Part shown: piece by piece, positions 27,792-60,294 of the stretch
How positions within the stretch are numbered: position 1 is the stretch's first letter
Layout: each line of letters begins with the position of its first letter
Assembly: GCA_044892505.1 (NCBI GenBank)
Contig: CM097882.1
Span: forward strand, 239,754,001 to 239,818,000
Direction: 5' to 3'
DNA length: 64,000 nt
Origin: Schmidtea nova
Taxonomy: Eukaryota
Made by a program: the position numbers and the translations under genes
The notes under the pieces: generated by a model
Seen by the model: only the letters and a program-made list of their open reading frames with translations
The model's database searches: none
Told to the model about the DNA's origin: nothing

Positions 27792-29100
27792 CTAGAAATA
27801 CTTTTCCAATTGGACTTCGGAGAAAATTTATTAAATCTCTATCAAAACTTTAATAACAAAATTACCGGTTTCTTATTGACTGACCATTGAGTGCGCACTT
27901 AAAGGTCAAGTAAATTGGCTGGAATTCATAAGTATTACTTACTATAAAAGAAAAGACGATAACGAATGAAATCCCGCCAAATGAAAACATTTAAGATCAA
28001 AATAATTGATCCAGTTGAAGCCTTGAAATGATATTAGAATTTTGATCAGATTTATCAACAAAATAATTACAAAATTACATAAGCTAATCTTTTATACTCA
28101 TCTATTAAATCAAAGCTGAAAATCTGTCAAGCACGCAGATTGTGCTGCACTTTTTTCTATTAAGATTATCACACAAAATTAATGTCAGTTGAAATATCAG
28201 TTAACAAGTTATATGAATGGATTAAATTATTAAATTATTATTTTATTTATATGATTATGTTGAGACAACTTCGTGTGGATAACGAAGTATCAAAATGTCT
28301 TCGTCCAAGGACTTAGATCAAGTCATGATTAAATGATCCAATCAAAGACGAGCAGAAAGAGTAACGGTAAGATATTCAATAGGTAAGGAATATAAGTTGT
28401 TTTACTTGAATCGCCAGATTAAACAACGACGTGGTGTTTGAGAACTTATAATACATGGGTAACACGTTAGAGAATATGTTGAAGGTCTGATAAATTCGGT
28501 AACAAATTTTAAAAATATTTCTGATTAGAAAAAAGGCAAGTTTATACTGCTAGGGCTTGAGAAAGTAACTGTGCCAGGACCGAGCCAATACCCATTGTGT
28601 GTATTATGTAATCATTCTTGTTTACAGATGGAACCATATGGCTTCATTATCACGCAATTGAGGTCAATGTCATTTGTAGTAACTTTCCAATTCAAGGTAA
28701 TATGAAGTCAAAGGTCATTTGAGGTCAAGGGTCATTGCAAAATTGAGATAAAAAGTCAATGTCATTTTTGTTTTAATTTTATTGCTTTAATTTACATTTT
28801 TTACTGTCGTTTTGAATTTTGTTTTAATAAAATAAATATTTTAAATTTTAAGTGATATTTTTAACGTTTTAACACCATTCTGTGTTTTGTTTAGATAAAC
28901 TAAATATTTATACAAACTTAAAGCGATATTGTTGAATTTTAAGATAAATTTCCGCCATTAAAAAATAAAAGTTTTATTAATATTTATTTTTTTATTTATT
29001 TTTTATTATTATTAAGTAGTATTATTTTTAACTATTATTATTATTTATGATTACTATAATTATTTTATAATTTATTAAACTTTTACAATAACAATTTCTT

Positions 29101-30046
29101 TGAAGAAAAAAGACACAAGACTAAGTTCATGTAATTATTTATTAACATAGACAATGAGTGGTGAGAAAAGCTCGCGTTTGTTTTTTTGAAGTGGATACAC
29201 AGTATGCAGATATCGCGCAAGAAGTTTATATAAAATTGTTGGGTATTTGCGATGTTTAGTCGGTGCTGTTAGTCTGACTCCTCGGTGTTCTTTAAATTTG
29301 ATTCAATAAAATAACCCAACACAGAAGAATTTATTTGTAACAATCACACTTTTGACACACTAAGTCTCTTTAAAATTTCACAATAACTTTTATCACTGCT
29401 TCTCCGACTTCGCGTAGGGATAAGTCTCCCCAAGGAAGATCTCCCTTTCTGGTACACTGGAATAATAAATTTGGTTTGGAACTTTTCAAATATCGCTCTT
29501 AACTCCTCACTTGCTGAATTCACTCACTTTTTCTTCGACCATTCTGGCAAACTTTAGTATTTGTCGTTCCCTTTTATACTGTTTCTGGTGATTGGTTTCC
29601 CACTTCGCTGCAACTGTCAAATGGTACTTTACGATTTGACGTTTTAATTTTCCATCTGTCGGTTACTCTCCGGGTCTCCTCCAAAGTTATTTTTCTCAGG
29701 AATTATTACCTGTCATATTGCTTGTCCGGGTTTCCCACACTCTCCGGGTTCTCCATTGTCTCGGGTTTCCCATTTGCTCGGGCTTTCCCTTAGCCAATTA
29801 ATTATTAATTAATATTTTAATATTTTAATTATTTCTTTCTGGGGACCCCCCATTGACTTTGTTTTATTATTTTTGGATTCGTTTCAATATTCGGCATCCA
29901 CCCATACCAATTTCCCCCGCTAATTCTCGGTTTTCGAATTTTACCTAAATTTTAATTAATTTTGAAAATTTTATACTTTATTGATTGTTACTAAGTTTTT
30001 ATGATTTTTATTTTTGTATTTTTCTAATTTTTACCAAACCCCAACA
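29101..30046 (-). repeat. 3' LTR, ~946 bp (TGTTGGGG...CTTCA)
   Basis: Begins TG directly after a PPT. Contains TATATAAA (29225-29232) and AATAAA (29138-29143) and ends CA. The first 62 bp recur at 46852-46913. The left boundary is inferred. Confidence 0.8.
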
Positions 30047-30062
30047 TACCTCTCCCCTTTAA
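30047..30062 (-). other. Polypurine tract
   Basis: Minus strand TTAAAGGGGAGAGGTA immediately before the TG of the LTR. Confidence 0.85.
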
Positions 30063-32061: not shown

Positions 32062-32245
32062 GTTTCAAAATTCATACAATTGTGTACACAGTCGCTAACT
32101 ACTGTCGCTACGCATCTGACTCGTAAAAGCATAAAACGAATTATTCTTTATTATTACAATAATAATGAATCGGTATGAAATATACGTTGTCAACAATTCT
32201 TTTTGTTTTATTATTATTAAAATAAATTTTAATAGTTGGAATTAC

Positions 32246-34346
32246 GGTGACCGGACAAAACAGAACAAGACAAAACAGAACATGACAAAACAGAACATGA
32301 CAAAACAGAACAAGACAAAACAGAACAAGACAAAACAGAACAAGACAAAACAGAACAATGACAAAACAGAACATGACAAAACAGAACATGACAAAACAGA
32401 ACATGTGGAAAAAAAGTTATATATTATATTACATTATTTTTATTTTACATTATTATTGTACATATTATTAAATTATTATTTTACAACTGGAGGTTGGCCA
32501 TTTTACATTTGCAGCGATTTGAATTACAATCGAATTTACAATTACAGTATTCCCCAATTTTTATAAAAACACTTTTGGAAATATTTAACTTTAAATAATT
32601 TCTATAAATTCTTTATTCTTTCCTAGTGCGATTTTTTCTATAAAATTTAACTGACTTTTATACTTTTTTCTACCTTGTCAGAAAGGAATTGATCCTATAA
32701 GTATCTCTATTGCAGTATAATATTATCATTATAGATTTGTATTTCAAGTGATACAGTTAAATTAAAGCTTTAAAATAAATAATAAAATCATGGAATATTC
32801 AATCACAAATAAAGAAAATAAATGTCTATTGTACCAAGGCTATGAATATACAAAGTATAGGGAAAACCAAGACTGAGTCGTCACCTGGAGATGCAGAATC
32901 TACTTTTCCACGAAATGCTGAGCATTGTTGAAAACACAAGGAGAAAACATCGTTGGAGAGGTCCCTCAACACTGCCATCAATCAAATCCTCAAAAAGCAC
33001 AGGCAAATATTTTAAAGGCTAAGATTAAGAAGGACATAAAAGCAATTGGTGCAACTCCAAGAAATATTCTGGGAAATGCCTTAGCATTAGTAAATAGCGA
33101 TGTTTTGGAACATTTACCAAAGCAATCCTCACTCACAAGAAATCTTGGTAGACATAAGGAAACTTTTTCTTTGCCGAATCCAGCTACAACTGATTTTATT
33201 ATACCAGAGAAATTTCTTGATCTCATTTTATATGATACAGGAACTGATGATCCAGAAAGAATATTGGCAATCGGGAATAATGATATTGCCTCAGAGCTAC
33301 ACAAGGATGTCATTTATGGAGACGGAACATTTGATAAAGCACCTAACATGTTCTATCAGCTGCATACATGGCATGCTAAGATTGGAAATTCATATCCTCC
33401 ATGTATATATTTTCTTTTACAAAAAAAGAATATGAGTACATACAACAGGATGTTTGTAATACTAAAGGAATTGGTGCCCAATATGACACCTCAAAAAATT
33501 CTACTGGATTTTGAAAAAGCATGTATGTCTGCTGCTCAAGCTGCTTTTCCACAAGCAGAAATAAAAGGATGCTACTTTCATCTCAGCCAAAGCTTAATTA
33601 GGAAGATCAACAGTGTTGGATTGAAAGCACTATATGAGTCCGATATTGACATAAAGTTGAAACTGAAGTCGTTAGCTGCACTCTCCTTTGTTCCAATCTT
33701 AGATTTAAAAACTGTCTTTGACGAACTAGCTGCAACATTTCCAGATGAGGATGCCTACAATCAAATATTAGCATATTTCTGCTCAACCTACATTGAAGGA
33801 GTTGCTGGAAGATCACCACTCTTTCCAATAAGAATATGGAACCATTTCGAGGCTGCTGCTGAGCGATCTCCCAAGACAACAAATTGTTGTGAAGGTTTTC
33901 ACAACGCATTAAATTCAATATTTCATTGTAGTCACCCAAGCATATGGAATTTATTAGATGGACTAAGACGAGATATGGCTTGTCAGCGATTAATACTAGC
34001 CAATGCCCAGACAGGTCGCCAAGAAGTGATAAAAAAGAAGTACGAAGCCATTGCTCTCCAAGTGTCAATAGTTGTGCAGGAATACCACGCTCACGAAGAC
34101 AAATTGAGGTATTTACGCAGAATGGCCAACCTCCAGTAATACTTACAACATCAAGATTAGATGTAAAATAATATGTACAATAATAATTTAAAATAAAAAT
34201 AATGTAATATAATATATAACTTTTTTTCCACATGTTCTGTTTTGTCACTGTTCTGTTTTGTCACTGTTCTGTTGTGTCTTGTTCTGTTTTGTCATGTTCT
34301 GTTTTGTCATGTTCTGTTTTGTCTTGTTCTGTTTTGTCATGGAACC
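32246..34346 (+). mobile_element. MULE/Mutator DNA transposon, 2101 bp, with TIRs built of 15-bp tandem repeats
   Basis: GGT...ACC termini; 8-bp TSD GGAATTAC (32238-32245, 34347-34354); ~230-255 bp TIRs with (ACAAAACAGAACATG)n arrays. Confidence 0.95.
32790..34139 (+). pseudogene. MULE transposase (FLYWCH + DDE) with two in-frame stops near the N-terminus
   Basis: The ATG at 32790 is in frame with ORF 32925-34139. LLYQGYEY...TWRC...C...H.H; YGDGTF, ILLDFEKA, KGCYFHLSQ, TTNCCEGFH. TGA codons interrupt the FLYWCH part. Confidence 0.92.
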
Positions 34347-34789
34347 GGAATTACAGTCTACTTCTTTTTAATAGAAGGCATTTTTTTTTAAAATGTATAG
34401 TTTATACAAACGGTATTTATGATGACAAGTGGGTAAAGTAGTGATCTGCTTTCAATATCACAGTGTTGATAAAAGTTAAATGGCAACTACAATTTTTTTG
34501 CTTTGTATGTCAGTGTTTCAATTTAGCAATTGAGCATCAATATTCTCCTGTAGTGTTTTCGATCATCTCATTTATAATTTGTTTCTTTTGGGAAATGAGA
34601 AGTAAAGAGGTATGAACTTAATATTGTATTCCCAATGATAAACACAGTGTGACGGGAACTACAGAACGTAAATGTTTTACTTTATTTATTCAATTATATG
34701 TTTAATGTAAGTTCGATTTAATATTTATTTTACTTAACACTATGCGAAATTTGAAATTTAATAATAATTCGAATGATTGTGTGACGTCG

Positions 34790-35279: not shown

Positions 35280-36743
35280 TCAATCCATTCTTATCTCGAT
35301 TCGATTAGATCCATGCTTGTAACGAACAATTGTTTCTTCTCGTTCATAGATAACACCGCTGTATAATATGGTTTTGCTGACTTCAATTGTCGAATCTGCT
35401 TTCCTTCTCAACTCGTTTACTTCTCTAGGCATTGGGCCATATCCTAACGTGGGTTGGAGTTTCACAATGTTCCAGTTTGGTATTGTTTCCAGACTCTCTT
35501 CAACTGGATCTATCAATGTTTCCACTGGATAACTTAGATCAATAATAGGAACTTCGCTCTCTTCCATTACTATGTCTTCATTTGTTAGATCTATTGCTTC
35601 CATAGCCATGTTCTCCGGGATTTGTGCTAACTTTTGCCTATCGGTTCCTTGAGTTAATTTGGATGTGTTGGCATATAAAATTTTGTATTCCTTTAGAGAA
35701 TACTTTCTTGATGGTTGTTTTCTGGGAATCACTATATCGTCAATCCATTGATTCTCTACCCGTTGGTATATCTTCCGTATCGTTTTGACATCCTCCAGCG
35801 CAGAGTGTATCCCAACCTGCGTTTCTTCTCCGCATATTTCCCGTGCTACCGTCTGCAGCTTGAACCACTCTCCTCTTCTGGTTACGTTCATTCTTTGTAG
35901 TATTTGTGCAGCTGCAAGATCCCGTATCCCATACAGTTGATCTACCCATATTCCAAGATACTGTAGTTCGGCGTGTAAATCGTGGCCTATTAATATTTTT
36001 CCCACTGTTAGCCTCTGAATATCCTTCATTTCCGAATATTGATCATGCTGATTTCTGCTGGCTACCTCTGTAATTCCATGGATCTTGGAATTGAAATGGC
36101 CAATTTTTCCTCTTGGGGTCAAATACACGTCTTTAATTATTTTTCCATGGTAATTTATCATCGCAACTGATAAAGGGATCATTCTTTTCGTTTCCGATGT
36201 GGCATATTCCGCGTCCACAAATATTGTTCTGTTCCGAATTTCTTCCATATCCATTTTTTTCCTAATGAATGAGAGTTTCCTTTTTAACATTTCTGCTGAT
36301 ATTTTCATCAACGTTGAATCCTGTTCCTCTGATGGCTGTGCGCTTGGCCTCTCATTTGGCTCGTTTTCTATTCTTGTTTCTAAAACAATGATTGTTTCCT
36401 CATTCGCTGCGCGTATAGGTTTCGCCATGATTTCATTTTGGATCTTCCAGGACGAAAATTTCTTCAATTCCATCCACGGCTGATTCCCGTCCATTATTTC
36501 TACTGTTCCTTTGATAACATGTAGGTAATATTGTTCTTTATTGGATATTCGAACTTCGTCCGCTAACTTCATTCCCATCTTTCGGTGTATTCTGAGTATT
36601 TTAATTTTCATTTTTCGGTCGTCGATTCTGAAATAATTTGGGATTTGTAAGTTGTCTGTAATCTGGAATTTTTGCCCTGCATGGCGTCTTTGCAGCTTTG
36701 CATAGCTGTCTAATGTGGATCTTGTCCATTGAATTTGTTCCAT
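35280..36743 (-). CDS. Retroelement accessory ORF, 487 aa, with REX4/ISG20-like DEDDh 3'-5' exonuclease
   Basis: ExoI FVDAEY (36207-36218), YLTPRGKIGHFNSKIHGIT, ExoII ILIGHDLHAE, IRDLA, ExoIII HSALEDV (35790-35807). Intronless, same strand, ~410 bp downstream of the polyprotein stop. Confidence 0.88.
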   Translation of the reverse strand: MEQIQWTRSTLDSYAKLQRRHAGQKFQITDNLQIPNYFRIDDRKMKIKILRIHRKMGMKLADEVRISNKEQYYLHVIKGTVEIMDGNQPWMELKKFSSWKIQNEIMAKPIRAANEETIIVLETRIENEPNERPSAQPSEEQDSTLMKISAEMLKRKLSFIRKKMDMEEIRNRTIFVDAEYATSETKRMIPLSVAMINYHGKIIKDVYLTPRGKIGHFNSKIHGITEVASRNQHDQYSEMKDIQRLTVGKILIGHDLHAELQYLGIWVDQLYGIRDLAAAQILQRMNVTRRGEWFKLQTVAREICGEETQVGIHSALEDVKTIRKIYQRVENQWIDDIVIPRKQPSRKYSLKEYKILYANTSKLTQGTDRQKLAQIPENMAMEAIDLTNEDIVMEESEVPIIDLSYPVETLIDPVEESLETIPNWNIVKLQPTLGYGPMPREVNELRRKADSTIEVSKTILYSGVIYEREETIVRYKHGSNRIEIRMD

Positions 36744-37151: not shown

Positions 37152-40100
37152 CTACACAATTGTTTCTTCATAGATCATCCAAGGTCTCGAAGGCTCGGAT
37201 TGAATCGTAGAAGGTCTGTATATTTTTATCGATTCGCAAAAGACAATAGCGCCAAATGTGATGAGAAAGATTGTTAGGATAATGATGGTTATAAATAATA
37301 TCACGCACGCGATTTCTTTGTCATTGTTTATTAATGATATAGTTTTATTATTTACAATTGATTTATTGGTGATGTCATTGAAAGGCGTTGTCATCTGATT
37401 TTGGTACAGTGCATTTGAATCGCTGTCATCTATTTTGTCGTAAAAGATTTGGACGAACTTGTCCTCGACTAAAGTTACTCGCCATAGATTAGAATACGAG
37501 GTGCGACGCTGATATTTGATTTTCATAAAGACAAATTTTGACCTTGACTTTGATCGTAGTTGTTGAAATGTTAATATTTGAGATTTATTGCTGCTGTCTA
37601 AGATTGCCTGAACTTTTCCACAATAGTATATAATAGCTTTTTGATTTGGGTCTGCTCTCCAAGTAACATTTATTAACTGATTGTAGATATAAAACTGAAC
37701 TCGGTTCGTTTCGTTGATCAATTTTATCGCTTGTTGACTAGACTGAATTTCAATCCATAGATTATCGCTGACGGTTACATTATCATATAAGGATTTTTCA
37801 TAATAACGGAACAAGATATTATATGTCTGAAATAATTTCAAATTAACATAGTTTATAAAGGGTTTTCTGCTGTTCAGCGTGTCTATAGCATAATTCTGGA
37901 AGACAGTTTTCACTTGTTGGGTTTCTTGTGGTTCCCAATGTACATTAATTCCATTAACAACGGGTTCAATAGAAACAAGATGCTCTAACCTTTTCGTCCA
38001 AACATCGAGATGTACCATATTATATATTTTTGTAGTATTCCCTTTAGAGCTTAATTGTGTTATTAGCCACTGATATTTATAATTCATCGTTAATTGCCGT
38101 GCCACGTGAGTGTTTTTATTATAATTCAATCTAACTGGGGGTTCAAAATAATCTAGTAAATTATTTACTTCAATTTCCTCTTCCCTTTCACCGTGAAAAA
38201 ACCATACGATCTGGGTACATGTTGCATATATGTGAATTTTATCCATCAATGGGATTCTTTTTGTTGCATACGAGGGAAAAACTCGTATTGCACTTATACA
38301 CAAGACATTTGCCATCATTATTGTTGAAATCAACAAGACTTTGTTGATATAGTTTAGTGGAGCTGAGTTTTTTGTAAATTTTTGTTTTACTGCTCCTTCT
38401 CCGTCTTTAATTAGTTTTGATCTCAATGGATATCGTGTTATTTCCTCCGACGGAACTTTCTTGCACCGGTTTACATGAACAATTATTGTTCCAGCTTTTT
38501 TATTATTCTGTGGGCGTAATTTCAAATTAGTTTCTGTAGTATCACATACGATATATGGTCCTTTAAACGGTCGCTGCAATTTTGGGGATAATCCCTTTGT
38601 TGGCTCTGGTTTATTCACATAGACTAAATCACCAATTTTAATATCATGTGCATGAGTGCGCTTGTCGTAGCACTCCTTATATGCTTCTTGCTGATGTTTT
38701 ATTTTAAGTCCGGCTTGAATCCAAACTGTCTGGAGTCTTTCTTGCATAATCACTTTATAATCTGATACATCCATATATCGGGAAATAGGCGACTGAAATT
38801 TCAGATCGATAGGCATATTGTTTCTTCGTAAGTACATGAGATAGAAAGGTGTTTCACCGGTACTTTCGTTCACTGCATTTCTGTATGCATACAAACATGG
38901 TTTAATGAATAAATCCCAATCTTTTTGTTTTCTATTTACGTATGACGATATCATATTAATTAGTGTTTCATTGAATCTTTCCACTAATCCATCTGTCTGT
39001 GGGTGATATGGTGATGTACTGATTTTCATTATTCCAAATAATTCTGTAATTGATTTGAACAATTCGCTTTGAAAATTTGTTCCTTGGTCAGTAAGCATTT
39101 TCTTTGGTGCCCCATATCGAAATATTATGTTTTCCACATACATCTTTGCAACTGTCTCAGCTTTCTGGTTTTGCATGCGGTAGGCTTCTGGCCATTTGGT
39201 TAAATAATCACAGAAGACAATAATGTATTTATTGCCGTTTGTCGTTTCTGGTAATGGACCGACAATATCCATTGCCGTCATTTCCATTGGTGCCACCGGT
39301 ACAGACATTGGTTTTAAAGGAACTCTAATTTTTCGTCCTGTGTTTCGTCTAGTTAAGCATATTTCGCAAGTATGACACCATTGTCTGACATCTTGTTCTA
39401 TAGTGTCCCAATAGTATTTTTGTTTTAATCTTGACAATGTTTTTCGAGCTGATAAATGCCCTCCTAATGCTCCGTCATGATACAACAATAATAATGATTT
39501 TCTATGTTTTGTTGGAACTATAATTAATAAATTTTCATTTCTTACGCATTTTAGCAAACCATCATGTATAATGTATTTATGTCTTTCCTCAACAATGTGC
39601 TTCCAGTCGCTTTCTTTTCTAATTGTAACAGCCTGTTGCCGTAGCTGATTCAATTCATCATCCTTTTCTTGATCACTTTGCAATTCCTTCATATTATTTG
39701 CCGTTTTCATTGCCATAAATATAGTGTTTTCATACTTTGTTTCATATTGAACAACGTCCTCCTCCTCTGAAATTCTCGACAGCGCGTCTGCATTTGCGTT
39801 CGACTTTCCTGTACGATATTTGATCTCAAAATCATATTCCTGCAACGCAATTGACCATCTTATCAGCTTACTTGCCGAGTCTCTGTGCTTCATTAGCCAT
39901 TGTAATGGGTTATGATCAGTGAAAACAACAAATTTCCTACCGATTAAGTATTGCCTGAACGTAGTTATCCCATATACTAATGCTAACGTTTCTTTTTCAA
40001 TCGTAGAATAATTCTTTTCATGCGGTCTTAACGTTCGACTGGCATAAGCGATAACGTGATCTTTCTCACCTTCTACTTGTTGACCTAGTATCGCCCCTAA

Positions 40101-43100
40101 TGCAAAATTACTAGCATCTGTCATCAATAAGAATGGCCTTTTAAAATCAGGGCATCTTAATATAGGTTGTTTCATTAAGCTTTCTTTGAGTGCATCGAAT
40201 GCTTCTTGTTGAGCCGTTGCCCATTTAAATTTTGCTTGCTTTTTTAACAGCACATTTAAAGGTTGTGCGACATGCGAAAAATTTCTTATAAATTTTCTGT
40301 AATAACTAGCTAGTCCTAGAAATTGTCGGACTTGGTCTATATCTTTGGGAATCGGATATTTCTTAATCTTTTGTACATTTTCCGGATTCGGCTGCAATCC
40401 TCGCCGGGAAATAATATGACCTACGTAAACAACTTCAGATTTTCCCCATTCACATTTTGACGGTTTTATCTTTAGGTTTGCCTTTAACAATCGTTTAAAT
40501 ACTGTTTCCACATCCCTCAGATGTTCCTGAAAATTGTTTGAAAATATTATCATATCATCAATATACACTAGTGCATGTGGGATGTCCCGTAATACGAAAT
40601 TCATACCTCTTTGAAAGGTAGCCGGTGCTCCCGTTAAACCAAACGGTAAGACATTAAACTCGTACAGACCTTTACCGTCTGAAAACGCAGTTTTTCTTCT
40701 GTCCTCTTCTTTGACCTTAAACTGATTATACCCTTTGTTAAGATCAATAACAGTAAAGAATTGCACCTCCCCCATTTGATCGAACATTTCTTGGGGAACT
40801 GGAATAGGGTATGTATCTTTTCTTGTGACTTGGTTTAACTTTCGATAATCTACACAGAATCGTAGATCACCATCTTTCTTTTTCACTACCACGATTGAAG
40901 CTGAAAATGGTGATGAGCTATCTCTTATTATTTTGAATTCTTTCATTGCTTTGATTTGCCTATCACTTTCTTCTTGATGAATGTATGGAATCCTATATGG
41001 CCTCAATTTTATAGGGGTTTCGTCCAACAATGGTATCTCATGTTCAATCACTTGAGTGAGTCCCAAATCATATTCATGTTTCGCGAACACATTCCTATAT
41101 CTCTTTAGTAGTGCCGTAAATTCTTGTTTTTGCTCATCTGTCAAATCATTACTTGTAATTTGAGGTCCTTTGTAAATCTTTATATTTCTGGGCAACCTTT
41201 GTACTTCTTCTTGTTTTATTTTTGTCAGTTTCCCCAGCTTTGTTTTGGGTTTCATCTGAATAGATTTTGTGCTACAATTTGCTAATCTTACTGGTACGGT
41301 TTTGTCTTTAACTTTTACTACTTCATCGCACATTGGTACGTCGTACTTCTCTATCAATTTTTGATTTGGTTCAAATATACATTCTTCTTCGGAGACATTC
41401 ATTACATTGGCATAGTATATAACTTCGCTTTTTGGTGGTATTTCCAAAGTTTGATTTAAAAAAACTTGTCCCGCTTCGTGCACAACTTCACCAGATAGTC
41501 CTTTCATCAATTTTCCCATTCTTAAATCAAGAGAAATTCCTTGTAATTGTTCCATAACGTCCATTCCAATCAAGCATTTGACAGGGCTTTTTCTCATTAC
41601 AGATACCCAATGAGTTACTTCTTGATTTCCAATATTCAGCTTAACTTCCAATTTTCCAACGATATTCAATACATTATGCGTCATTGATTTAATAATTTTC
41701 GTAGTTGGCTTCATTCTTGCCTTCTCCTGACTCGTCAAGAGATTCTCAGATACTATGCTGTGACTTGAGCCTGAATCCAATAACGCTTCAACTTTTCGTC
41801 TATTAAATTGTATGTCAATTCGAGGTTGTTTTCCTCCCAATTCTATGGTCATCAATGCATAACTACAAGGTAAACCAAGCATATTCTTTCTTTCAATTTC
41901 GGCGCTTGATGGTTCAATCTTTTCTAATTCGACTTTAATCTTATCAACTGGTTTCATTTCTCTCAACTTCTCACTTGGATATACAGGAGCTGTTGGCATA
42001 AATGTCGGTGTGTACCATTTAGAGAGAGTGTCAATTCCAGTTAGTTTTGGTATTGGTTCCATCAAGAATCTGGATTCGGGGTCTATTCTACTTTTTATTA
42101 TACCCCGTCGAAACGATTTTGGCTCTGATCTGCCGCCATTGCTATCATTGTTGTGACCCTTATTTTTATCTTCAAATTCGCATAGTGATTCTTCACTTTT
42201 CAGATCATTTTTCAATTGTGCTCTAACACTTGCCATTTCCTCATATTGATGATTTGTAATGAAGAATCTAGCCAAAAACGGAATACAACCAATAATCATT
42301 TTCCATGACCATCCGGAAATTGCATATATTCGATGAGCGGACAATATTTGTGATATTATTACTTTTATTGTTACTGCAACTACATAAATGCCAATTAAGC
42401 CTGCACAAGCTTGTCCTAAAAACATAAATCTTCCCCAAATTTTTTCCATTGTTTTAAATGTAGCTCGTTTAAAATGATCAGGTGTCAGCAAATATTCGTA
42501 ATTAACTTTTCCTTCTCCATTTGGCAGTATTGTATCAATCATCTCAGAAATCACTCGTTCCTTTTTTGATGGGAATAATAAATTTCTTTGGGCTTCTTCT
42601 ATATCTTCGCTTGCGTATAGACCCATTTGTGCCATCTTATTCATTGATGTGAAATTTACCAAGTACTCTAAATTTATTAATTCCAATTTATCTGGAGTTC
42701 TAACTCCCCGGTAGTCTGGTAACGCTATCCATGAATCTTGTGCTAAACGATATAGTGGAGCTAATAATCGATTACATTGTAGAATTTTCGGTTTGACTTG
42801 TTCTTCCAACAATATTCGAGTTATCGGTTCCATGAATCGTAATTTCCCGCCAACATTTACCGGTAATTCATTTGTACATTTCTCATATTTCGCGATTTTC
42901 ACTATACTTTCTTTGCACCTGTAACTGTATAATGCTTCTCCAAAGATCCTAGCGAATACACCATTTTCTGATATTAGCATGGGTGCTACTAAATTTGGAT
43001 TAGTAATTGCCATTGCCATTCGATTTCTAAGTATTTCCTTGTTCAACTTACAGTCGTTTAGAATCATTTCTCTATATACGTTTTCCATGATGTTTTGACT

Positions 43101-46100
43101 AAAATGAAACAAATAGTCAATTTTATTATTGAAGTAATGAGTTAATTTGATATCATCCCGGTGAATTCTTGTTTTAGCCTCATATACGATTGTTTTAGAT
43201 ACATAAACTCCTTTGTAATTTGTTGCATATACAGTTTGACCACATTTACTCGTTATGTCCTTTTTTATGAAACGCATGCCGTCTGTTGGCAATGTTGACA
43301 TTAACACTGTTGCCGTTTGTCTCGTCCAAACTGGGGTTGATCTAACTGTATTGTTCGGTTTATAATTCACATTAAAATTGTCCGGTCTTTCCCTAAATTG
43401 CTCTCCGCTCAATTCTTTGAAATTAATAGTTTTTAAATGGGATAAGTTGCATATATTAGTCTTGACATCATAGACAAGAATCGATTCCCCAGTGTGACAA
43501 CTAGTTTGTTTCATATTACAGAATGGATGAGTTTGTAACTTTCCTGTATCGTCATCAAACGACCCTTCGAATACTCTCAATTCTGTTAGATATTCCTCTA
43601 TTACTACTGCTTGTTTTATCACTTGATCATTTATTTTATACGGTTCTCCCTCACAATCGCCGTCTGATTTCATTACTCCTTTCACAATTAATGTTTCTCT
43701 GATTTGATGGTTTACTCGAGCTTTCAATCGAATTTCAGGACTAATTTTTAATTCCCCTGTTTGAAATGCCGTTAAACAGTTTTCTGGTAACACGTCCGCC
43801 GGTCGTGGAATAGCATGCATTTTTATCATCGAAGTATGGCTCCATTTGCCACAAAAGAATACGAACGTGGTTCGTTTAACGATACATTCCCTAACTTGAG
43901 AACGCCGTAAATCGGATTCTTGGTAAACATGATACTTTGCTTCATTTTCAATTTTTAATTTTCTTGGGTATGCATCTGGGCATTCTGTCATATCGACCAC
44001 AGAATAAATTTTCCCCATTTCTGTTTGTGAGCAATCGTATGCCACCAATGAAGTAGCTTGTGCAATTATTGTGCATAAAATAACCATCATGAACAGCACC
44101 CAAGGGAATATCGTAGTTTTTCTTAGTTTTGGGTCTACTTTTTCGTTCAACTTTCTTTGAGGTGGATTCTCATCTTCTTGTTTCTTTCTTTTCTTTGTTA
44201 TAGATGAATTTAATGCTTTCCACCCTCCAAGCTCTTTTATCCCTTTCATCAAACATTCATTTAATAGTCGAGCCGCAGTGTCAATCAAATTCTCAATCTG
44301 ATCTGGCCTAGTAAATGCACGAATACCAATTTCGGAAACCACATGTGTTAAACTTGTTAACACTGTTTTTCTATCGATTCCATTTTCGATCAATTTTTCA
44401 ATCCTTTCTCTTTTACAGAAATCACCCTTTTTTTCAAATTCATGCTCAATTTTTGGAAGTCTCTCTTTCACTTCCTCAACCATCCCTTTCAATTCCTCCT
44501 CAGCTTCTGGTTTTATTTTTAGAATTGGGTAAACAGTTTTAACTAGGTTTCTTATTATTCCTTTAGTTTCATCAACTTCCCGCTCTATATTTAATAAATA
44601 TTTCTTCATCTCATATAAAGTTCTAGGTTTAGTACTCCAATTATTCATTTCCACTTTCTCGACATTTGTCTCTCTGCTAATTGTAGTTTCTGCTACCTGA
44701 ATATTGACTTCTTTCTGATCATCACCTTCATCGTTAGCTATTGCGGTTTCATTTTCTCCTATTTCATCTCTCTTTTCTTCTGTGTGGGAGGATTCCCCGT
44801 TGCCAAGCATTCTCGGGTTAAATTCTTTATTTGCTATTATACGGTTAATTAAATATCCCTGACTTCCATCAGTACTTAAATATCCATATTCATCTAATTC
44901 TTGTGGCATGCATCCACAGTCGTATAAATATTCATCGTCATCCAGTGCTTCACCTTTATGTTTCAATACTATAATTCCATCTTGTCCTAACATCTCCGTA
45001 GCTCTTCTACGTATTTTCCGCACTTTCGTACACCAATGCTCTTCTACATACTCAGTTTTTCCAATATCTTCGTATTCTATTGCAATTACTAATAAATTCA
45101 ATTCTGCTCTATCTTCTCTAAGCTCTTTGCCCAATTTTCTCAGTAATCTCTTTAAATTTCTACTATATCTGGTTCTTTTAAACAGATGCGGTCGTATTAC
45201 GTTGATAATTTCTATTTTATCCTTTTGCTCAAATTCAGATTTCTCAATTAATTTCACTATTTCATTTATTTCGCTTTCATCGCCAATATATAAAACATCA
45301 GATAGCTCCATTAACACTTCCCTCGGATCACTTTTCACCATTTCACAACTACTCCTCATATTGACTATTTGTAACTCATTTTTATCTCCTGGTATAAACC
45401 CACAGTCTACCAAATATTCCTCGTTATCTAATTCTCTATTTTTAAATTTTAATTCTACTACCCATCCTTCGCATTTTTCTCTTAGTCTCCTTTTTAAATC
45501 TTTAACACAATCATAGGCTTCACATCGACAAGTAATCAGACTTTTATCACATTCATTAACAACATCAATAAAAATAAAATCTAACCATCCATTTTCTCGG
45601 AATGCTTTTCCAAATGTTTTCATCAACTCTTTGATTTCATCTCTATCTGCTAAATTTATTTGATAATAGTTTGCACACAAATTAATCACGCATTTTAGTT
45701 TTCTCATACTCAGTGACATTTGACTCAACTTTTTAATTGACATTAATATTTTGGATGACTCTTTTGCGCTAGCTTCTAGCAATTTCTCAAGTCTCTTCAT
45801 CATTATTGTAACTTTTTCGCTTTCCAAATCGTCCTTTGTACATACTCCTTTCGCTTCCGTTTCAGTCATATCCGACCCATACATCATGTGATTATCTAAT
45901 TCCTCATCAGATTCAAACTTAGACATTAAACGATCCAAGCGTCGACCCATTTCTTTCACTTGACTTTCAATTCTATCATTAAATTCGTCTGATTGAACAA
46001 AAGCAACATTTTCTGCTGGCATTCTATCATTTTGAAAACGAATTGATTTTTTTAATATTGGTTTCTGAAATTTATCGACATTTCTCGGGCATGATCTAGC

Positions 46101-46496
46101 CATATGTCCATAGCCTCGACATGAATGACATTGAATTTGGCCTTGAAGGTTCACTCTATCTCGTTGTGGTGATGGCGAAGTGGATGGAGATCTCGATCTA
46201 GCAAAACAATTACGTGAAACATGTCCTTTCCTTCCACAATTGTAGCATTGTATATTATCATTAGTTCGTTGATCTTTAATGCTAAATTTATTTAAGCTTT
46301 TTTCATTATTACCCTTCATCCAATCTGGCCACATTCGTTTTGGGCTTCGTTGTACATTATTTTTAGACCAGCATTGATTGCTATTGTGACCAATCTTTTG
46401 ACAGTGATCACATTGAATTGGAGTTGGGCTTTTTGCGATCGGTTCTTGAACCAACATTGATCGGCATGATGTCCCATCCGTTGACAATAACTGCAT
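37152..46496 (-). CDS. 3114-aa polyprotein: gag C-terminus - accessory domains - class III glycoprotein - PR - RT - RNase H - IN - second membrane protein
   Basis: CCHC knuckles; LVAYDC (44031-44048); LLDSGS (41769-41777); LRFCVDYRKLN; YIDD (40554-40565); TDAS (~40115); H..H/C..C, MDIVGP, LTDQG, GLVER; FKGPY. The true start is upstream, in the gag frame. Confidence 0.97.
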   Translation of the reverse strand: MQLLSTDGTSCRSMLVQEPIAKSPTPIQCDHCQKIGHNSNQCWSKNNVQRSPKRMWPDWMKGNNEKSLNKFSIKDQRTNDNIQCYNCGRKGHVSRNCFARSRSPSTSPSPQRDRVNLQGQIQCHSCRGYGHMARSCPRNVDKFQKPILKKSIRFQNDRMPAENVAFVQSDEFNDRIESQVKEMGRRLDRLMSKFESDEELDNHMMYGSDMTETEAKGVCTKDDLESEKVTIMMKRLEKLLEASAKESSKILMSIKKLSQMSLSMRKLKCVINLCANYYQINLADRDEIKELMKTFGKAFRENGWLDFIFIDVVNECDKSLITCRCEAYDCVKDLKRRLREKCEGWVVELKFKNRELDNEEYLVDCGFIPGDKNELQIVNMRSSCEMVKSDPREVLMELSDVLYIGDESEINEIVKLIEKSEFEQKDKIEIINVIRPHLFKRTRYSRNLKRLLRKLGKELREDRAELNLLVIAIEYEDIGKTEYVEEHWCTKVRKIRRRATEMLGQDGIIVLKHKGEALDDDEYLYDCGCMPQELDEYGYLSTDGSQGYLINRIIANKEFNPRMLGNGESSHTEEKRDEIGENETAIANDEGDDQKEVNIQVAETTISRETNVEKVEMNNWSTKPRTLYEMKKYLLNIEREVDETKGIIRNLVKTVYPILKIKPEAEEELKGMVEEVKERLPKIEHEFEKKGDFCKRERIEKLIENGIDRKTVLTSLTHVVSEIGIRAFTRPDQIENLIDTAARLLNECLMKGIKELGGWKALNSSITKKRKKQEDENPPQRKLNEKVDPKLRKTTIFPWVLFMMVILCTIIAQATSLVAYDCSQTEMGKIYSVVDMTECPDAYPRKLKIENEAKYHVYQESDLRRSQVRECIVKRTTFVFFCGKWSHTSMIKMHAIPRPADVLPENCLTAFQTGELKISPEIRLKARVNHQIRETLIVKGVMKSDGDCEGEPYKINDQVIKQAVVIEEYLTELRVFEGSFDDDTGKLQTHPFCNMKQTSCHTGESILVYDVKTNICNLSHLKTINFKELSGEQFRERPDNFNVNYKPNNTVRSTPVWTRQTATVLMSTLPTDGMRFIKKDITSKCGQTVYATNYKGVYVSKTIVYEAKTRIHRDDIKLTHYFNNKIDYLFHFSQNIMENVYREMILNDCKLNKEILRNRMAMAITNPNLVAPMLISENGVFARIFGEALYSYRCKESIVKIAKYEKCTNELPVNVGGKLRFMEPITRILLEEQVKPKILQCNRLLAPLYRLAQDSWIALPDYRGVRTPDKLELINLEYLVNFTSMNKMAQMGLYASEDIEEAQRNLLFPSKKERVISEMIDTILPNGEGKVNYEYLLTPDHFKRATFKTMEKIWGRFMFLGQACAGLIGIYVVAVTIKVIISQILSAHRIYAISGWSWKMIIGCIPFLARFFITNHQYEEMASVRAQLKNDLKSEESLCEFEDKNKGHNNDSNGGRSEPKSFRRGIIKSRIDPESRFLMEPIPKLTGIDTLSKWYTPTFMPTAPVYPSEKLREMKPVDKIKVELEKIEPSSAEIERKNMLGLPCSYALMTIELGGKQPRIDIQFNRRKVEALLDSGSSHSIVSENLLTSQEKARMKPTTKIIKSMTHNVLNIVGKLEVKLNIGNQEVTHWVSVMRKSPVKCLIGMDVMEQLQGISLDLRMGKLMKGLSGEVVHEAGQVFLNQTLEIPPKSEVIYYANVMNVSEEECIFEPNQKLIEKYDVPMCDEVVKVKDKTVPVRLANCSTKSIQMKPKTKLGKLTKIKQEEVQRLPRNIKIYKGPQITSNDLTDEQKQEFTALLKRYRNVFAKHEYDLGLTQVIEHEIPLLDETPIKLRPYRIPYIHQEESDRQIKAMKEFKIIRDSSSPFSASIVVVKKKDGDLRFCVDYRKLNQVTRKDTYPIPVPQEMFDQMGEVQFFTVIDLNKGYNQFKVKEEDRRKTAFSDGKGLYEFNVLPFGLTGAPATFQRGMNFVLRDIPHALVYIDDMIIFSNNFQEHLRDVETVFKRLLKANLKIKPSKCEWGKSEVVYVGHIISRRGLQPNPENVQKIKKYPIPKDIDQVRQFLGLASYYRKFIRNFSHVAQPLNVLLKKQAKFKWATAQQEAFDALKESLMKQPILRCPDFKRPFLLMTDASNFALGAILGQQVEGEKDHVIAYASRTLRPHEKNYSTIEKETLALVYGITTFRQYLIGRKFVVFTDHNPLQWLMKHRDSASKLIRWSIALQEYDFEIKYRTGKSNANADALSRISEEEDVVQYETKYENTIFMAMKTANNMKELQSDQEKDDELNQLRQQAVTIRKESDWKHIVEERHKYIIHDGLLKCVRNENLLIIVPTKHRKSLLLLYHDGALGGHLSARKTLSRLKQKYYWDTIEQDVRQWCHTCEICLTRRNTGRKIRVPLKPMSVPVAPMEMTAMDIVGPLPETTNGNKYIIVFCDYLTKWPEAYRMQNQKAETVAKMYVENIIFRYGAPKKMLTDQGTNFQSELFKSITELFGIMKISTSPYHPQTDGLVERFNETLINMISSYVNRKQKDWDLFIKPCLYAYRNAVNESTGETPFYLMYLRRNNMPIDLKFQSPISRYMDVSDYKVIMQERLQTVWIQAGLKIKHQQEAYKECYDKRTHAHDIKIGDLVYVNKPEPTKGLSPKLQRPFKGPYIVCDTTETNLKLRPQNNKKAGTIIVHVNRCKKVPSEEITRYPLRSKLIKDGEGAVKQKFTKNSAPLNYINKVLLISTIMMANVLCISAIRVFPSYATKRIPLMDKIHIYATCTQIVWFFHGEREEEIEVNNLLDYFEPPVRLNYNKNTHVARQLTMNYKYQWLITQLSSKGNTTKIYNMVHLDVWTKRLEHLVSIEPVVNGINVHWEPQETQQVKTVFQNYAIDTLNSRKPFINYVNLKLFQTYNILFRYYEKSLYDNVTVSDNLWIEIQSSQQAIKLINETNRVQFYIYNQLINVTWRADPNQKAIIYYCGKVQAILDSSNKSQILTFQQLRSKSRSKFVFMKIKYQRRTSYSNLWRVTLVEDKFVQIFYDKIDDSDSNALYQNQMTTPFNDITNKSIVNNKTISLINNDKEIACVILFITIIILTIFLITFGAIVFCESIKIYRPSTIQSEPSRPWMIYEETIV

Positions 46497-46860
46497 TGAA
46501 TTGGTTGTTCTTTTTCGTCGATTTGAACACGTGTTGATTTATTCATCTCAAAATTTGGTCTAAATTTTGGTGATGGACTACTTGATTGCTGGAGCCGATT
46601 GTTTCTGGCTGGAGAATTGGATCTTTCTCTTGATTCATTGATAATGGCGAAGGATTCTGATTTCGGCTTTGCACTTTTTAAATTTAATTCAATTTTCATA
46701 GCCTTTTTGATTAACTCATCGAAGTTATTGAAATCTACATAACATAAGGCTTTTTTGATTTCCCCTTTTACTCCCGCTAAGAACTGATCTTGTAATAGTT
46801 CCTTTACCTGCTTTGCCACTTCAATCTGTTCCGGTTTTACTTCGAAGGCCTTTGTTACTA
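46430..46860 (-). CDS. Upstream gag segment (capsid end + first Zn knuckle), offset by one base from the polyprotein at an A5 run
   Basis: LQDQFLAGVKGEIKKAL...FDELIKKAMKIE and CSYCQRMGHHADQC. Restoring one A at 46430-46434 fuses it to SPTPIQCDHC. Confidence 0.88.
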
Positions 46861-46913
46861 AGTTTTTATGATTTTTATTTTTGTATTTTTCTAATTTTTA
46901 CTAAACCCCAACA
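46852..46913 (-). repeat. 62-bp stub of the 5' LTR fused directly to mid-gag
   Basis: Matches 29985-30046 with one mismatch. The junction falls in TTAGTAACAA, which reads LVT in the gag frame. Confidence 0.9.
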
Positions 46914-47360
46914 AAATCTATCATGAGAAACATCAGTTAAACAAATTAATAACAGAACACATGGAAATAAATTAAATAAAACATGTTAATAATTTAAACT
47001 GAACAAAAGCGCATCAAGTATACACGTTGAAAACACAATTATAACATAAAAACATCAATTGCAGAATAAAATTACAAATTTGGAAAAATTCACATATTTT
47101 CGGAAAGAATATTTCTATTTTTATCTTAAAAACTTGTAAATTATAAAATAAAATTGATTTAAATAAAAATTTAGTAAATCTAACTAAATTAGTAAAAACT
47201 TTAATTCAAAATAAAAATTTTGGATTAAAATAAATTAACTAAATTTTTTATAAAACTTTACACAAAATAATAATTTAATTTTCCCTAAAATCGTTAAAAT
47301 AAATTTTGAAAAAATCGAAAATTCAACCTAGTATATTTGTTTTAAACACACCCCAGAATA

Positions 47361-50300
47361 ATGAAGAGTCCGAAAAAAATTTTTTATGATACACCCGCCG
47401 TTAACCAGTGCTTAGTTGAATGTCTTCACATAGACATTCCTAGCACTGGTCAGAAAGAAGATCCCGATCAAGCTATTATTTCATATAAAAACAATAACTT
47501 AATTTTTCCTTCTAGAACATCATCCTTACAACCTCTCGAAACTATGAAGAAATATAACAAAACCCAGAATTTTTCCATCAACATTAAACTATCCATCTCA
47601 AACCCTATTCCCAATTCTACTTATGTAAATACCACCGATGGAACTCTCAACCCAAATGATAATAAAATAATATCTCAAAAATCAGAGAATTTGAAATCCA
47701 ATAAAATTACAGAATCTCTAACTAAGTCTGAAGAATTCAATTCTAATTTAGAAATTTTTACTAATAAAAATTTCAAAAAGAAAAATAATGAAAATCATTA
47801 CTACTTTAATAATAAAAATTACCATTCGAATCAAGAAACGTATAATAAATCCTATAGAAAAGAATATCATAATAAAAATTTAAAAAATAAAAATTTCAAT
47901 TTCGAAAACTATGAAAAATATGATAATAACACCAATTATTATAAAAATACTGAAGAACCTAATAAAAAATATCAACTTAAAAACTATGAAAATAATAAAA
48001 ATAAAATACCAAAATTTGAAAATAAAGAAGAATATTATAACACCAATGAAATGAATACAGAAGATTATATAAAAATTAAAAAATTTAACTTTTTAAATGA
48101 TTATTATCAAAAAAAACCGAAAATATTTTAAAAAACTCGAAAAAATTCCTATAAATAGAATTATTTTCGAAATTTTAAAATCAAAAGCATTTTTTGAAAA
48201 TAGGGAAAATTTGTTTAAATTAAAAGCAAATTTCAGAGTTCCCGATAATGAAGAGTCCGAAAAAAATTTTTTGCCCCCCGCAGGGGGGCAAAAAACTCGT
48301 CCGCCTACGGCGGAAAATCAGAATGTAAATATCCCAGCAACTGAAAAAAAAGAACTATTCGGTTTTGAGAAAAACCCAAGATATCGTAACATCAGAAAAA
48401 TTAAAACTAATAAATCAATTACTCCGACAACATCAACAACAACATCAATTATCCCATCTACTTCAATTGTCCCACTCACATAAATTGTCCTACCAACATC
48501 AAGTGTCATACCAAAATCAATTGTCCCATCAATATCACTTGTCCCTTCAACATCAAAAGATCCTTCAACATCTAATGCTTTCCCTACATCTAATGCTCCT
48601 TCAACACCAAATGCTTCTTCAACACCAAAGGTTCATCCAACATCCAAAACTCCTTCAACATCAACTACCCCTTCAAAAACAACAGATCTTCCATCATCAA
48701 CTGGCCCTACTGCCACTACTCCTTCAACATCTACTGTACCTTCAACATCAACTGCTCCGTCTACTTCAACTGCTCCTTCAACATCAACTGCTCCTTCAAC
48801 ATCAACTGCTCCTTCAACATCAACTGCTCCTTCAACATCAACTGCTCCTTCAACATCAACTGCTCCTTCAACATCAACTGCTCCTTCAACATCAACTGCT
48901 CCTTCAACATCAACTGCTCCTTCAACATCAACTGCTCCTTCAACATCAACTGCTCCTTCAACATCAACTGCTCCTTCAACATCAACTGCTCCTTCAACAT
49001 CAACTGCTCCTTCAACATCAACTGCTCCTTCAACATCAACTGCTCCTTCAACATCAACTGCTCCTTCAACATCAACTGTTCCTTCAACATCAACTGTTCC
49101 TTCAACATCAACTGTTCCTTCAACATCAACTGTTCCTTCAACATCAACTGCTCCCTCAACATCAACTGCTCCTTCAACATCAACTGCTCCTTCAACATCA
49201 ACTGCATCTTCAACCCCAACTGCTCCTCATAAATCCCTCCCAAACATAAATACCACACAAATTGCTACCCACACTGTCCCGAATGATATTGCCATAGCAA
49301 ATCTGTATTACTCATTTTATAAACCCTCTATACAGATCAAAGGAAAACCTGATGAAATATTCCGTATCATTGAAAAAACTCCAGTAAACTGGGATATCTT
49401 TAATCAGGAAAGGTTAATAAAAACTGAAGATATCAAAAATTTAAACAATTCACAAATTCGAGTATTAGTGAAAGAATATGCCTCGCTCCTCTACTCACTG
49501 AACAACATTAAACAAGAAAATTTGAAACTACTTCAAGCTGCAAATGAAAACTTTATTGCATGGCAACCAATACTCGAAAAAATAGGAGGAATCACAGATT
49601 TCATTAAAATTAAGAACTTACAGAAAGAAGTCATTGAAGATTTATTTAAAAAATATCACAATATCCACACCACTCCATCAACTACTCCATCAACATCTAC
49701 TATTCCCCCAACGGCAACCACTAGTTCAACATCTACGGGTCCTTCAACATCTACTGCTCTCTCAACATCTACTACTCTTTCAACATCTACTACTCCTTCA
49801 ACATCTACTACTCCTTCAACATCTACTACTCCCTTGACCTCTACTGCTCCTTCAACAGCGACTGACCCTTCAACATCTACTGCTCCCTCAACCTCTACTG
49901 TTACTCCAACAGCCACTGATCCCTCAACATCTACTAATCCATCAACTTCTAAACAATCAAACAATATCTTCATCTTCGGTTCTACACCCTCAAATCCTAC
50001 AAATATTTCATGTAACACTAATATCCACAAATACAATACCAGATTGAATACTAAAATTATCTCTCTCCCAGATAAAGAACAGACTGCTTCCTATTACACA
50101 ACTTATAATCCAACACCCTCCGAAAAAAGAAAACCACTTGAAATATTTAAAATCATCCATAAAACTCCAATTTTTTGGGCCATCTTTAACAAAAATAAAA
50201 AACTCACCACTAAGGATATTCACTCGATGAATGAGCCAACAATTGAAGACCTGATAAATCACTATATCGTTTTCTTCTCTTCCCCTCCACTTCATCTGGA

Positions 50301-50817
50301 TAAATCAATAACATTCCAAGTAATTCATAATGATATATACAACTGGCTCCCTGCCTTGGAAATTTATGGAATCACAGACTACCTTACCCTATGCAACTTA
50401 TCAGCAAACGACATGAATAAACTTAACTTTGAATACAACAATGAAAGTACTCAATCACAAAAAGACCTCATTGAATTTGCAGGAGAATCCATGTTCAATA
50501 CTACCCAAAGACCTATTGAGAAAATTTATGCATCAGTTAGCATTATCGACCTGATGTATGACATCTCCAAATTAAAAAATAAAATGATTAATAATGAAGA
50601 AAAGAGAATTTCAATATCACACTGCAAACCCCCAACTTGGTTCCCTCTCTTATGCATCCTAGGTGAGGACGCCATCGATTATCTAGAAATATCAAAATCT
50701 GAATTCATTAAAATGTTGATTAAAGCCCAAACATTTCATAAAGAAAGTCACTTTGTATCAATTGACCTTCCTGAAGATGACCTGGATAAAATGATGTGTG
50801 AATATTTACACATATAA
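47361..50817 (+). pseudogene. Unassigned ~1150-codon ORF (one frameshift, one stop): N/K-rich N-terminus, mucin-like S/T/P arrays, duplicated unknown domain
   Basis: 47361-48131 overlaps the frame of 48097, which is open to 50817 except for TAA at 48481 (probably TCA>TAA). No recognisable family motif. Confidence 0.6.
48720..49215 (+). repeat. 18-bp tandem array (CCTTCAACATCAACTGCT, encoding PSTSTA), roughly 25 units
   Basis: Near-perfect minisatellite, with a block of GTT variant units. Confidence 0.97.
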
Positions 50818-50850
50818 AAAATCTCTATCTCCCAATCAATCCTATCTTCC

Positions 50851-51300
50851 TGAATCCAATCTCCTGCTCTTAGATTCACACCTGCTCAACATTTTCAATC
50901 TTCCAATCAATTGTTGATCCTACTCACACCATTCCACAACATGTTCACCGAAACAAACTACTACCTCCTGCTCTAAGATTCGCACCTGCTCAATATTCTC
51001 AATCTCTCAATCAATATTCACTCCTATTCACACCGATCCTCAACTTGTATACCGAAACAAACTGCTCATTATTCTTGATCTCCCAATCAATACTCGCCTC
51101 TTGAATCCAATCTCTTGCTCTAAGATTCACACCTGCTCAATATTCTCAATTTCCCAATCAATAGTCAATCCTACCCACACCATTCAACAACATGTTCTCC
51201 GAAAAATACTACTACCTCCTGCTCTAAGATTCACACCTGCTCAATATTCTCAATCTCTCAATCAATACTCTCCTCCTGATCCAACAATCCAGTGTCCCTA
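50851..51300. repeat. Two ~250-bp tandem units, each with two copies of a ~45-bp core
   Basis: TGAATCCAATCTC at 50851 and 51102. The core CTCCTGCTCTAAGATTCACACCTGCTCAATATTCTCAAT occurs four times. Confidence 0.85.
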
Positions 51301-57651: not shown

Positions 57652-57684
57652 ACACAATATTTCGGCACAGCCTTTATCAAGTGT
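57652..57684 (-). ncRNA. Minimal hammerhead ribozyme (inverted copy)
   Basis: Reverse complement of 60083-60115. Confidence 0.75.
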
Positions 57685-58132
57685 GTATTTCTATCGTTAT
57701 ATTTACTTAATACTAAATAGTAGCCTTAATTATTTTTTTAATATTTTATAATGATTTTATTGGATGAAAAAATTTATTTTAATTTTTTTGTGCGAATTGA
57801 ATGTTGATGGACGGTTTGTATTTTTTTATGAAAAAAGTCTCGGAAGCTAATCTTTGTAATGAATTTTTGAATCCCTCTTGTAGAATCTGACATTTTGTTT
57901 CTTCTATAGATGGAGTTGTTTTATGTACTTTCTCCCAGTGTTCGTAATAATTACTGGTTTTGTTTTTAGTGTGTTCATTAAGTCGGGTGCGAAAAGTTCT
58001 ATGTGTTTCTCCTATGTAAGTAGCGTCACATTTTTGACAAGAAAGTTTATATACTATATTTTTGGAAAAGCAAAAGCATCGGGTTGTGGAACGGCAAAGA
58101 CATTTGTGTTTGGAAATGTTGGAAATTGGTGG

Positions 58133-59988: not shown

Positions 59989-60082
59989 AATAAATTTTTT
60001 CATCCAATAAAATCATTATAAAATATTAAAAAAATAATTAAGGCTACTATTTAGGATTAAGTAAATATAACGATAGAAATAC

Positions 60083-60115
60083 ACACTTGATAAAGGCTGT
60101 GCCGAAATATTGTGT
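60083..60115 (+). ncRNA. Minimal type I hammerhead ribozyme in the Penelope 3' repeat
   Basis: ACAC-TTGATAA-A-GGC TGT GCC-GAA-ATAT-T-GTGT; predicted cleavage after 60111. Confidence 0.78.
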
Positions 60116-60294
60116 TATTGTTTATAAAAAAAAAATTTTGATCTATAGTCATTATGAGAATTATTGATAATAATAATAAAAAAAGATCAAAGGTGAAAAA
60201 AGATAATTATGATAATTATTAATATATTGTTAGTATATTTATATTTTCTACTTTATATCCTAAATAAGACCATTCTTTTAGGAAATAAAATTTA

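Follow-up and report, generated by a model that had tools for sequence, protein, structure and literature searches.

A planarian Ty3/gypsy retroelement family with a predicted class III membrane fusogen encoded between gag and pol

We analyzed a stretch of 64,000 nucleotides from the planarian Schmidtea nova (GenBank assembly GCA_044892505.1, contig CM097882.1, positions 239,754,001 to 239,818,000), which is called the window here and to which all positions refer. The minus strand of the window carries a copy of a long terminal repeat (LTR) retroelement in which a glycoprotein gene, env, lies between gag and pol. Profile matches and a structural model indicate that this env probably encodes a working class III membrane fusogen of the herpesvirus gB/chuvirus G type. 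The element is a Ty3/gypsy retroelement of the GAG-ENV-POL type, which is young and present in many copies. The family was recently active, and the copy in the window is a defective member. This env class and gene order are already in print for flatworms; the finding is a further example and not a new concept.

The env region resembles class III fusion glycoproteins

Env occupies positions 42255-44111 on the minus strand, which correspond to amino acids (aa) 810-1428 of a long stop-free frame. The frame and the parts of env are as follows.

37152..46538, minus strand: stop-free frame of 3,128 codons, with zinc knuckles, accessory domains, env, protease (PR), reverse transcriptase (RT), RNase H (RH), integrase (IN) and a second membrane protein
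44028..44126, minus strand: putative internal signal/transmembrane segment 1, aa 805-837, hydropathy (KD) 2.34
42438..44048, minus strand: predicted class III (gB/chuvirus-type) fusogen ectodomain, with 14 cysteines and 3 N-glycosylation sequons
42255..42437, minus strand: predicted env membrane anchor (42333-42434), then a weaker, likely amphipathic segment

A first-pass annotation had proposed a chuvirus/gB-like class III glycoprotein, in frame upstream of pol, on the basis of sequence motifs, a signal-like segment and a C-terminal membrane region. All of the motifs are present on the minus strand, in one frame and in the order claimed: LVAYDC at aa 831 (position 44048), ECIV at 884, FFCG at 894, DGDCEG at 959, HPFC at 1004, SCHTG at 1013, NDCKLN at 1161, YSYRC at 1204, CTNELPV at 1221, FMEPITRIL at 1235, WGRFMFLG at 1368 and GWSW at 1409. 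The two membrane regions coincide with hydrophobic segments at aa 805-837 and aa 1369-1402, and the frame runs on from env into protease, RT, RNase H and integrase. The anchor at aa 1369-1402 has a KD value of 2.33, compared with 1.28 for the segment that follows; the respective ranges in 10 relatives are 1.79-2.43 and 1.01-1.71. No furin-type site (R-x-[KR]-R) occurs in the env ectodomain.

The Pfam family Monjiviricetes_fusion (PF24664) matched aa 815-1463 with an E value of about 5e-84 (283 bits versus a cut-off of 27). A HMMER search of 1.84 billion representatives resulted in 1,408 env relatives at E<=0.001; an earlier word-index search had given only 3. The best relatives are polyproteins with 28-42% identity, and env stands before a retroviral protease within one protein in 10 of the 18 relatives scanned. 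An AYDC-like motif is located within the first 80 residues of 73 out of 91 stored matches of 600-760 aa. The cysteines of the ectodomain are well preserved: in an alignment of 114 relatives each of the 14 is present in at least 90% of the sequences, and 47 of 50 genomic copies keep the complete set.

The search of the PDB with the single env sequence gave chance matches only. When a sequence profile was used, 33 of the 38 matches were to herpes gB; these were weak (best E 0.007, in the central helix). An AlphaFold2 model computed from a 113-sequence alignment reached a pLDDT of 90.1 and shows a long central helix (H302-349). Foldseek comparison of this model with the PDB gave herpes gB for all the fold matches listed (best E 2.6e-15, TM-score about 0.43), and a comparison with viral models placed G proteins of chu-like viruses on top (E 1e-41, TM-score up to 0.68). 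Profile similarity and structural similarity to class III fusogens, whose absence had been set beforehand as the refuting result, were both found, and the proposed class of the glycoprotein is upheld. The first-pass annotation also assumed capture from a chuvirus. This origin is not established, since Chary and Hayashi (eLife 2026, PMC13524379) argue for an ancient association of env and pol.

Some database entries among the env relatives deserve a comment. HBK71150.1 (P0009), a 2,627-aa env-PR-RT-RH-IN polyprotein, is filed under a Flavobacteriaceae metagenome-assembled genome; it probably stems from an animal retroelement whose DNA ended up in a bacterial bin. Two other proteins (P0002 and P0003) join an env piece to FAD-oxidase or mitochondrial L47 domains; they are likely chimeric assemblies or products of read-through.

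Env is under purifying selection

The ratio of nonsynonymous to synonymous substitution (dN/dS) of env between subfamilies is 0.033 and 0.054. Elsewhere in the frame, RT and IN have values of 0.012-0.04, the protease 0.06-0.07, the accessory domains 0.09-0.40 and the part after integrase 0.17-0.22; several of the underlying dS values are near saturation.

These data bear on the possibility that env is a mere passenger, i.e. a functionless chuvirus glycoprotein fragment that was recently inserted into the retrotransposon as an endogenous viral element. The nearest named structures are indeed chu-like virus G proteins. However, these top fold matches share only 14-21% sequence identity with env, whereas the polyproteins with env before the protease share 28-42%. 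Furthermore, env occupies the same position in three subfamilies and in distant relatives, and a dN/dS far below 1 refutes a passenger. Purifying selection close to the level of RT and IN, together with the retained cysteines, indicates that env is maintained; we consider the passenger explanation extremely improbable.

The window copy is a defective member of a young family

A search of the S. nova genome yielded 4,165 candidates, of which 71 matches were scored. The scored matches fall into groups at 97-100% and 91-92% identity, and a family search added a third subfamily at about 83%. By our count from the match table, the frame is 3,381-3,402 codons long and free of stops in env in 25 of the 71 scored copies. 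Four other copies were examined. They are 16.8-17.4 kb long with LTRs of 0.81-0.87 kb each, and all four have LTR pairs that are 99.3-99.9% identical, 4-bp target duplications, a polypurine tract and a primer site.

The primer site is complementary to tRNA-Trp. A tandem array of genes for tRNA-Trp(CCA), the same tRNA that primes the element, with a period of about 282 bp, begins at about 128.02 Mb on G000:C3 (L079-L082). The tRNA-Trp pattern has 1,984 exact matches genome-wide, and the first 100 of these matches are all in this array.

The Pfam scan of the long frame found the order PR-RT-RH-IN with gypsy-type domains, including a gypsy-type RT_RNaseH, Integrase_H2C2 and a gag-asp protease; the frame gave no match to the Pfam families that we take to mark BEL elements. 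The window copy extends from 46913 to 29237 on the minus strand and has its own 4-bp target duplication. Its remaining features are listed here.

46914..46917, no strand: 4-bp target-site duplication, 5' side; the mate at 29233-29236 has the same 4 bases
46852..46913, minus strand: 5' LTR remnant of 62 nt, joined directly into gag; matches the beginning of the 3' LTR at 61/62 positions
46316..46853, minus strand: C-terminal remnant of gag in a frame that differs from the long open reading frame (ORF); the break is in the zinc-knuckle region
41538..41831, minus strand: aspartic protease (LLDSG), RVP E 4e-7
39834..40886, minus strand: reverse transcriptase (YIDD) and RNase H, RVT_1 E 1e-31, RT_RNaseH E 1e-38
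38517..39518, minus strand: integrase (H2C2, rve, C-terminal domain), from Pfam
35280..36743, minus strand: separate ORF after pol with a DEDD-type exonuclease domain, RNase_T E 7e-5
32237..34355, plus strand: MULE DNA transposon inserted in the 3' non-coding part of the element; terminal inverted repeats, MULE E 4e-10
29237..30060, minus strand: polypurine tract (about 30047-30060) and complete 3' LTR (29237-30046, TG...CA)

Relative to the other copies about 1.4 kb is missing at the 5' end. The 5' LTR is reduced to 62 nt, and the primer site and the start of gag are absent; Retrotrans_gag was found in the matching part of other copies. The window copy is thus 5'-deleted and non-autonomous. 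Since the LTR promoter, the primer site and the gag start are missing, its own LTR cannot drive synthesis of the complete polyprotein. The exonuclease ORF is kept in all three subfamilies; its RNase_T match scores 23.9 bits in the window copy versus a cut-off of 24, and 24.8 bits in another copy. The MULE insertion is not part of the element and is absent from one copy that was compared base by base at this site.

Accessory domains and a second predicted membrane protein

Additional domains lie in the same frame on either side of env and pol.

44892..45566, minus strand: two related, likely ubiquitin-like repeats (45339-45566 and about 44892-45119) with a helical spacer between them
44169..44651, minus strand: likely Bcl-2-like domain, adjoining the env signal segment on its N-terminal side; sub-threshold PF00452
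37152..38351, minus strand: another predicted type I membrane protein, encoded after integrase without a break in the frame; from hydropathy and sequons

The two repeats share 33% identity (E 4e-8). They have no Pfam match; a profile of the repeats matched polyubiquitin best (E 0.007), and 7 of its 15 PDB matches are named ubiquitin or ubiquitin-like. On the opposite strand an antisense frame of 217 codons (44863-45516, plus strand) overlaps the repeats. It is found in both same-subfamily copies, is not among the frames listed for two copies of the second subfamily and is probably incidental.

For the Bcl-2-like domain PF00452 matched two sister subfamilies with E values of 1e-4 and 9e-4, which are below the cut-off, and the window copy gave no match. 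The best match of a profile of this region is Bax (E 0.012), and distant relatives carry the same Bcl-2-like piece at this place. We also considered aa 398-482 as a CARD-like domain and dropped the idea, as no match was found.

The predicted protein after integrase consists of a signal-like segment, about 320 aa with 7 sequons, a strong transmembrane segment and a short tail ending in E-T-x-V. Between subfamilies its identity is about 60%. All six copies checked end in E-T-x-V/L, which we take to resemble a class I PDZ-binding motif. The protein has no Pfam or PDB match and no database relative among proteins of 217-699 or 700-2000 aa, and its AlphaFold2 model, with a pLDDT of 34, has no usable fold. 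The related polyproteins P0009, P0006 and P0017 also have at least two hydrophobic segments after integrase; these parts have no detectable sequence similarity to that of the window element. A fibronectin-III assignment for the post-integrase protein and its counterparts in P0009 and P0006 was rejected (best E 0.064; 0.1% in a profile comparison).

A proposed topology of the polyprotein

The hydropathy of the long frame shows four strong membrane segments. Given an internal signal segment, it is reasonable to infer that env would be inserted co-translationally. In intact members of the family, translation would then yield a single polyprotein that contains all four; its Gag part, both ubiquitin-like repeats and the Bcl-2-like domain would remain in the cytosol. 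Segment 1 would serve as an internal signal: after a cut by host signal peptidase, the N-terminus of env would be free in the lumen of the endoplasmic reticulum, and the Bcl-2-like domain would be held in the membrane by a tail anchor. With segment 2 as the anchor of env, the chain would cross back to the cytosol, and here the element protease would release PR, RT-RH and IN. A cytosolic Pol requires that the weaker segment which follows this anchor does not span the membrane. Segments 3 and 4 would yield a second surface protein with a lumenal ectodomain. Env would trimerise, and budded particles could fuse with other cells, resulting in cell-to-cell spread of the element.

Such a polyprotein, flavivirus-like and processed by signal peptidase, might provide an enveloped retroelement with a two-glycoprotein entry system. 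The conserved gB-type fusogen before pol would act with a fast-evolving attachment protein after integrase, like herpes gB and its receptor-binding partner; Pol would be packaged as the cytoplasmic tail of the fusogen, and the Bcl-2-like domain would be anchored by the env signal. We put this system forward tentatively, as possible if rather doubtful.

Several points weigh against the scheme. The topology is drawn from hydropathy only. In 3 of 10 relatives the segment after the env anchor reaches KD values of 1.5-1.7; if it spans the membrane, Pol would be lumenal. The Bcl-2-like and ubiquitin-like assignments fall below curated cut-offs. As to the fusogen itself, the TM-scores to solved gB structures are 0.37-0.45, with a root mean square deviation of 11-14 A for most matches. 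Finally, a 1:1 output of Gag, Env and Pol is poorly suited to building capsids.

Env could also be kept for a role other than infection, either as a membrane anchor for Gag and Pol during intracellular assembly or for fusion of host cells, with no extracellular particle being made. Being fused to env, Gag and Pol would both be expected to be tethered to the membrane, and the lack of a furin-type site is compatible with such a role. The extent of the role of such ENVs in infectivity is called unclear by Chary and Hayashi (PMC13524379). However, an ectodomain of 540 aa with 14 cysteines and a dN/dS of 0.03-0.05 would be needless in a pure anchor. We regard a non-infectious role as unlikely.

Control of expression

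The first-pass annotation also held that Env must be made 1:1 with Gag and Pol, free of frameshift or splicing control. This would hold only if no message other than the full-length RNA existed and the products did not differ in stability. Since a 1:1 output is ill-suited to capsids, some unseen control of the proposed polyprotein is likely. Synonymous sites provide one candidate for its location.

45489..45608, minus strand: codons 311-350, with synonymous sites unusually conserved across three subfamilies; possible, weak RNA-level signal

Codons 311-350 lie between gag and env. Here 5 of 24 synonymous sites are variable compared with 13.5 expected (p 2e-4, the best of 142 overlapping codon windows); under a local null p is 0.004 among 29 codon windows. 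The constraint gives a weak hint of control at the RNA level.

It may be, then, that the same protein is made but not in a 1:1 ratio. Splicing, early 3'-end formation, recoding near codons 311-350 or selective degradation would lead to an excess of Gag over small amounts of Env and Pol. There are precedents for such mechanisms in the spliced gag RNA of Drosophila copia and the selective degradation of Pol in Schizosaccharomyces pombe Tf1. The fact that codons 311-350 are the most constrained of all the codon windows is consistent with this explanation, as is the constraint in each of the three subfamily pairs (5/33, 4/27 and 4/25). The same codons include a near-invariant U-rich block of 31 nt and the only slippery heptamer before env that is common to the three subfamilies. 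However, the signal is marginal after correction for multiple testing (about 0.03 for the whole frame and 0.1 under the local null), only three independent lineages are compared and no stable structure follows the heptamer (z 0.2-1.2). A -1 frameshift at codon 348 was accordingly rejected, as it has no stimulatory structure downstream. The contigs of three runs matched coding and non-coding parts alike and are uninformative on splicing. On balance we rate an unequal output as about as probable as not.

Other features of the window

A host gene has exons at 22044-27849 (minus strand); they encode thrombospondin-1 (ADAMTS-type) and Ig domains and end about 1.4 kb from the 3' LTR of the element. 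On the other side, open frames at 47346-51270 (plus strand) contain an 18-nt tandem repeat that encodes (PSTSTA)n in a frame of 777 codons; they have no Pfam match. Three further mobile elements are present. A Penelope-like element (57590-60178, with an RT and GIY-YIG ORF at 58024-59988) has perfect inverted repeats of about 500 bp, and a partial copy, 90% identical, is located at 1118-2096. A small LTR-element remnant at 12058-13834 has 161-bp direct repeats that flank gag-like and integrase frames. Decayed pol-like frames of another retroelement (52214-54599, minus strand) match a stretch in L027 at 86%.

Comparison with known systems

The family described here is a clean example of its type: it is young, high in copy number, represented by three subfamilies and has an env under purifying selection at the level of Pol. 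It speaks for a functional gB-type env in invertebrate Ty3/gypsy elements, although activity is still unproven. The layout of a single frame with four membrane segments bears on the Gag:Pol ratio and on the packaging of Pol. Of greater novelty is the possible polyprotein with two glycoproteins, in which the post-integrase membrane protein belongs to no known family. The literature searched, including the main text of PMC13524379 (figures aside) and parts of the other papers, holds no discussion of the single-frame, four-segment topology or of this protein.

According to Chary and Hayashi, the errantiviruses of Nematoda, Bryozoa and Platyhelminthes have only the HSV/gB-type ENV, in the order GAG-ENV-POL. 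Their Smed_errantivirus_1 from Schmidtea mediterranea agrees with the window element in gene order, in the class of env and in its Ty3/gypsy pol, and is also multi-copy. In env domains I-II, 197 of 251 residues (78%) are identical to the window env, as counted by eye against the supplement row. It is another family member, from a different genome. For the Smed elements PMC13524379 lists neither an LTR nor a primer, whereas the window family clearly has both, with a tRNA-Trp primer.

The planarian Burro elements (Arkhipova and Yushenova 2019, PMC6431247) carry env in frame between BCL2 and protease. Burro1/GYPSM1 has ubiquitin-like and BCL2-like motifs before this env; for such motifs the window element gives sub-threshold but consistent matches. 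In contrast, Burro/GYPSM1 is larger (>30 kb and 4,873 aa versus 16.8-17.4 kb and 3,401-3,402 codons), and the MATH, BIR, ankyrin and dUTPase domains of Burro1/GYPSM1 have no Pfam match at E<=1 in the window element. The Burro env, compared here by description only, is described as gypsy-Env-like with mononegavirus matches.

Other LTR elements share single traits. Anakin from mosquitoes (Dezordi 2020) has the same glycoprotein class but is a BEL/Pao element, whereas the window pol is of the Ty3/gypsy type. Atlas virus of hookworm (PMC9094657) likewise has its env within a single stop-free Gag-Pol polyprotein; it differs in being a Belpaovirus with a class II, phlebovirus-like env located after pol. 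The rotifer elements Juno and Vesta (PMC5408684) have an extra 3' exonuclease ORF (DEDDy ORF3) after pol, as does the window element. In Juno/Vesta this ORF replaces env and in the window element it accompanies env; the comparison concerns domain and position.

With herpesvirus gB and chuvirus G the window env has in common the fold, the long central helix and the cysteine skeleton. It differs in sequence (8-13% identity to gB), in a signal that is internal instead of N-terminal, and in a cytoplasmic tail that runs on into Pol.

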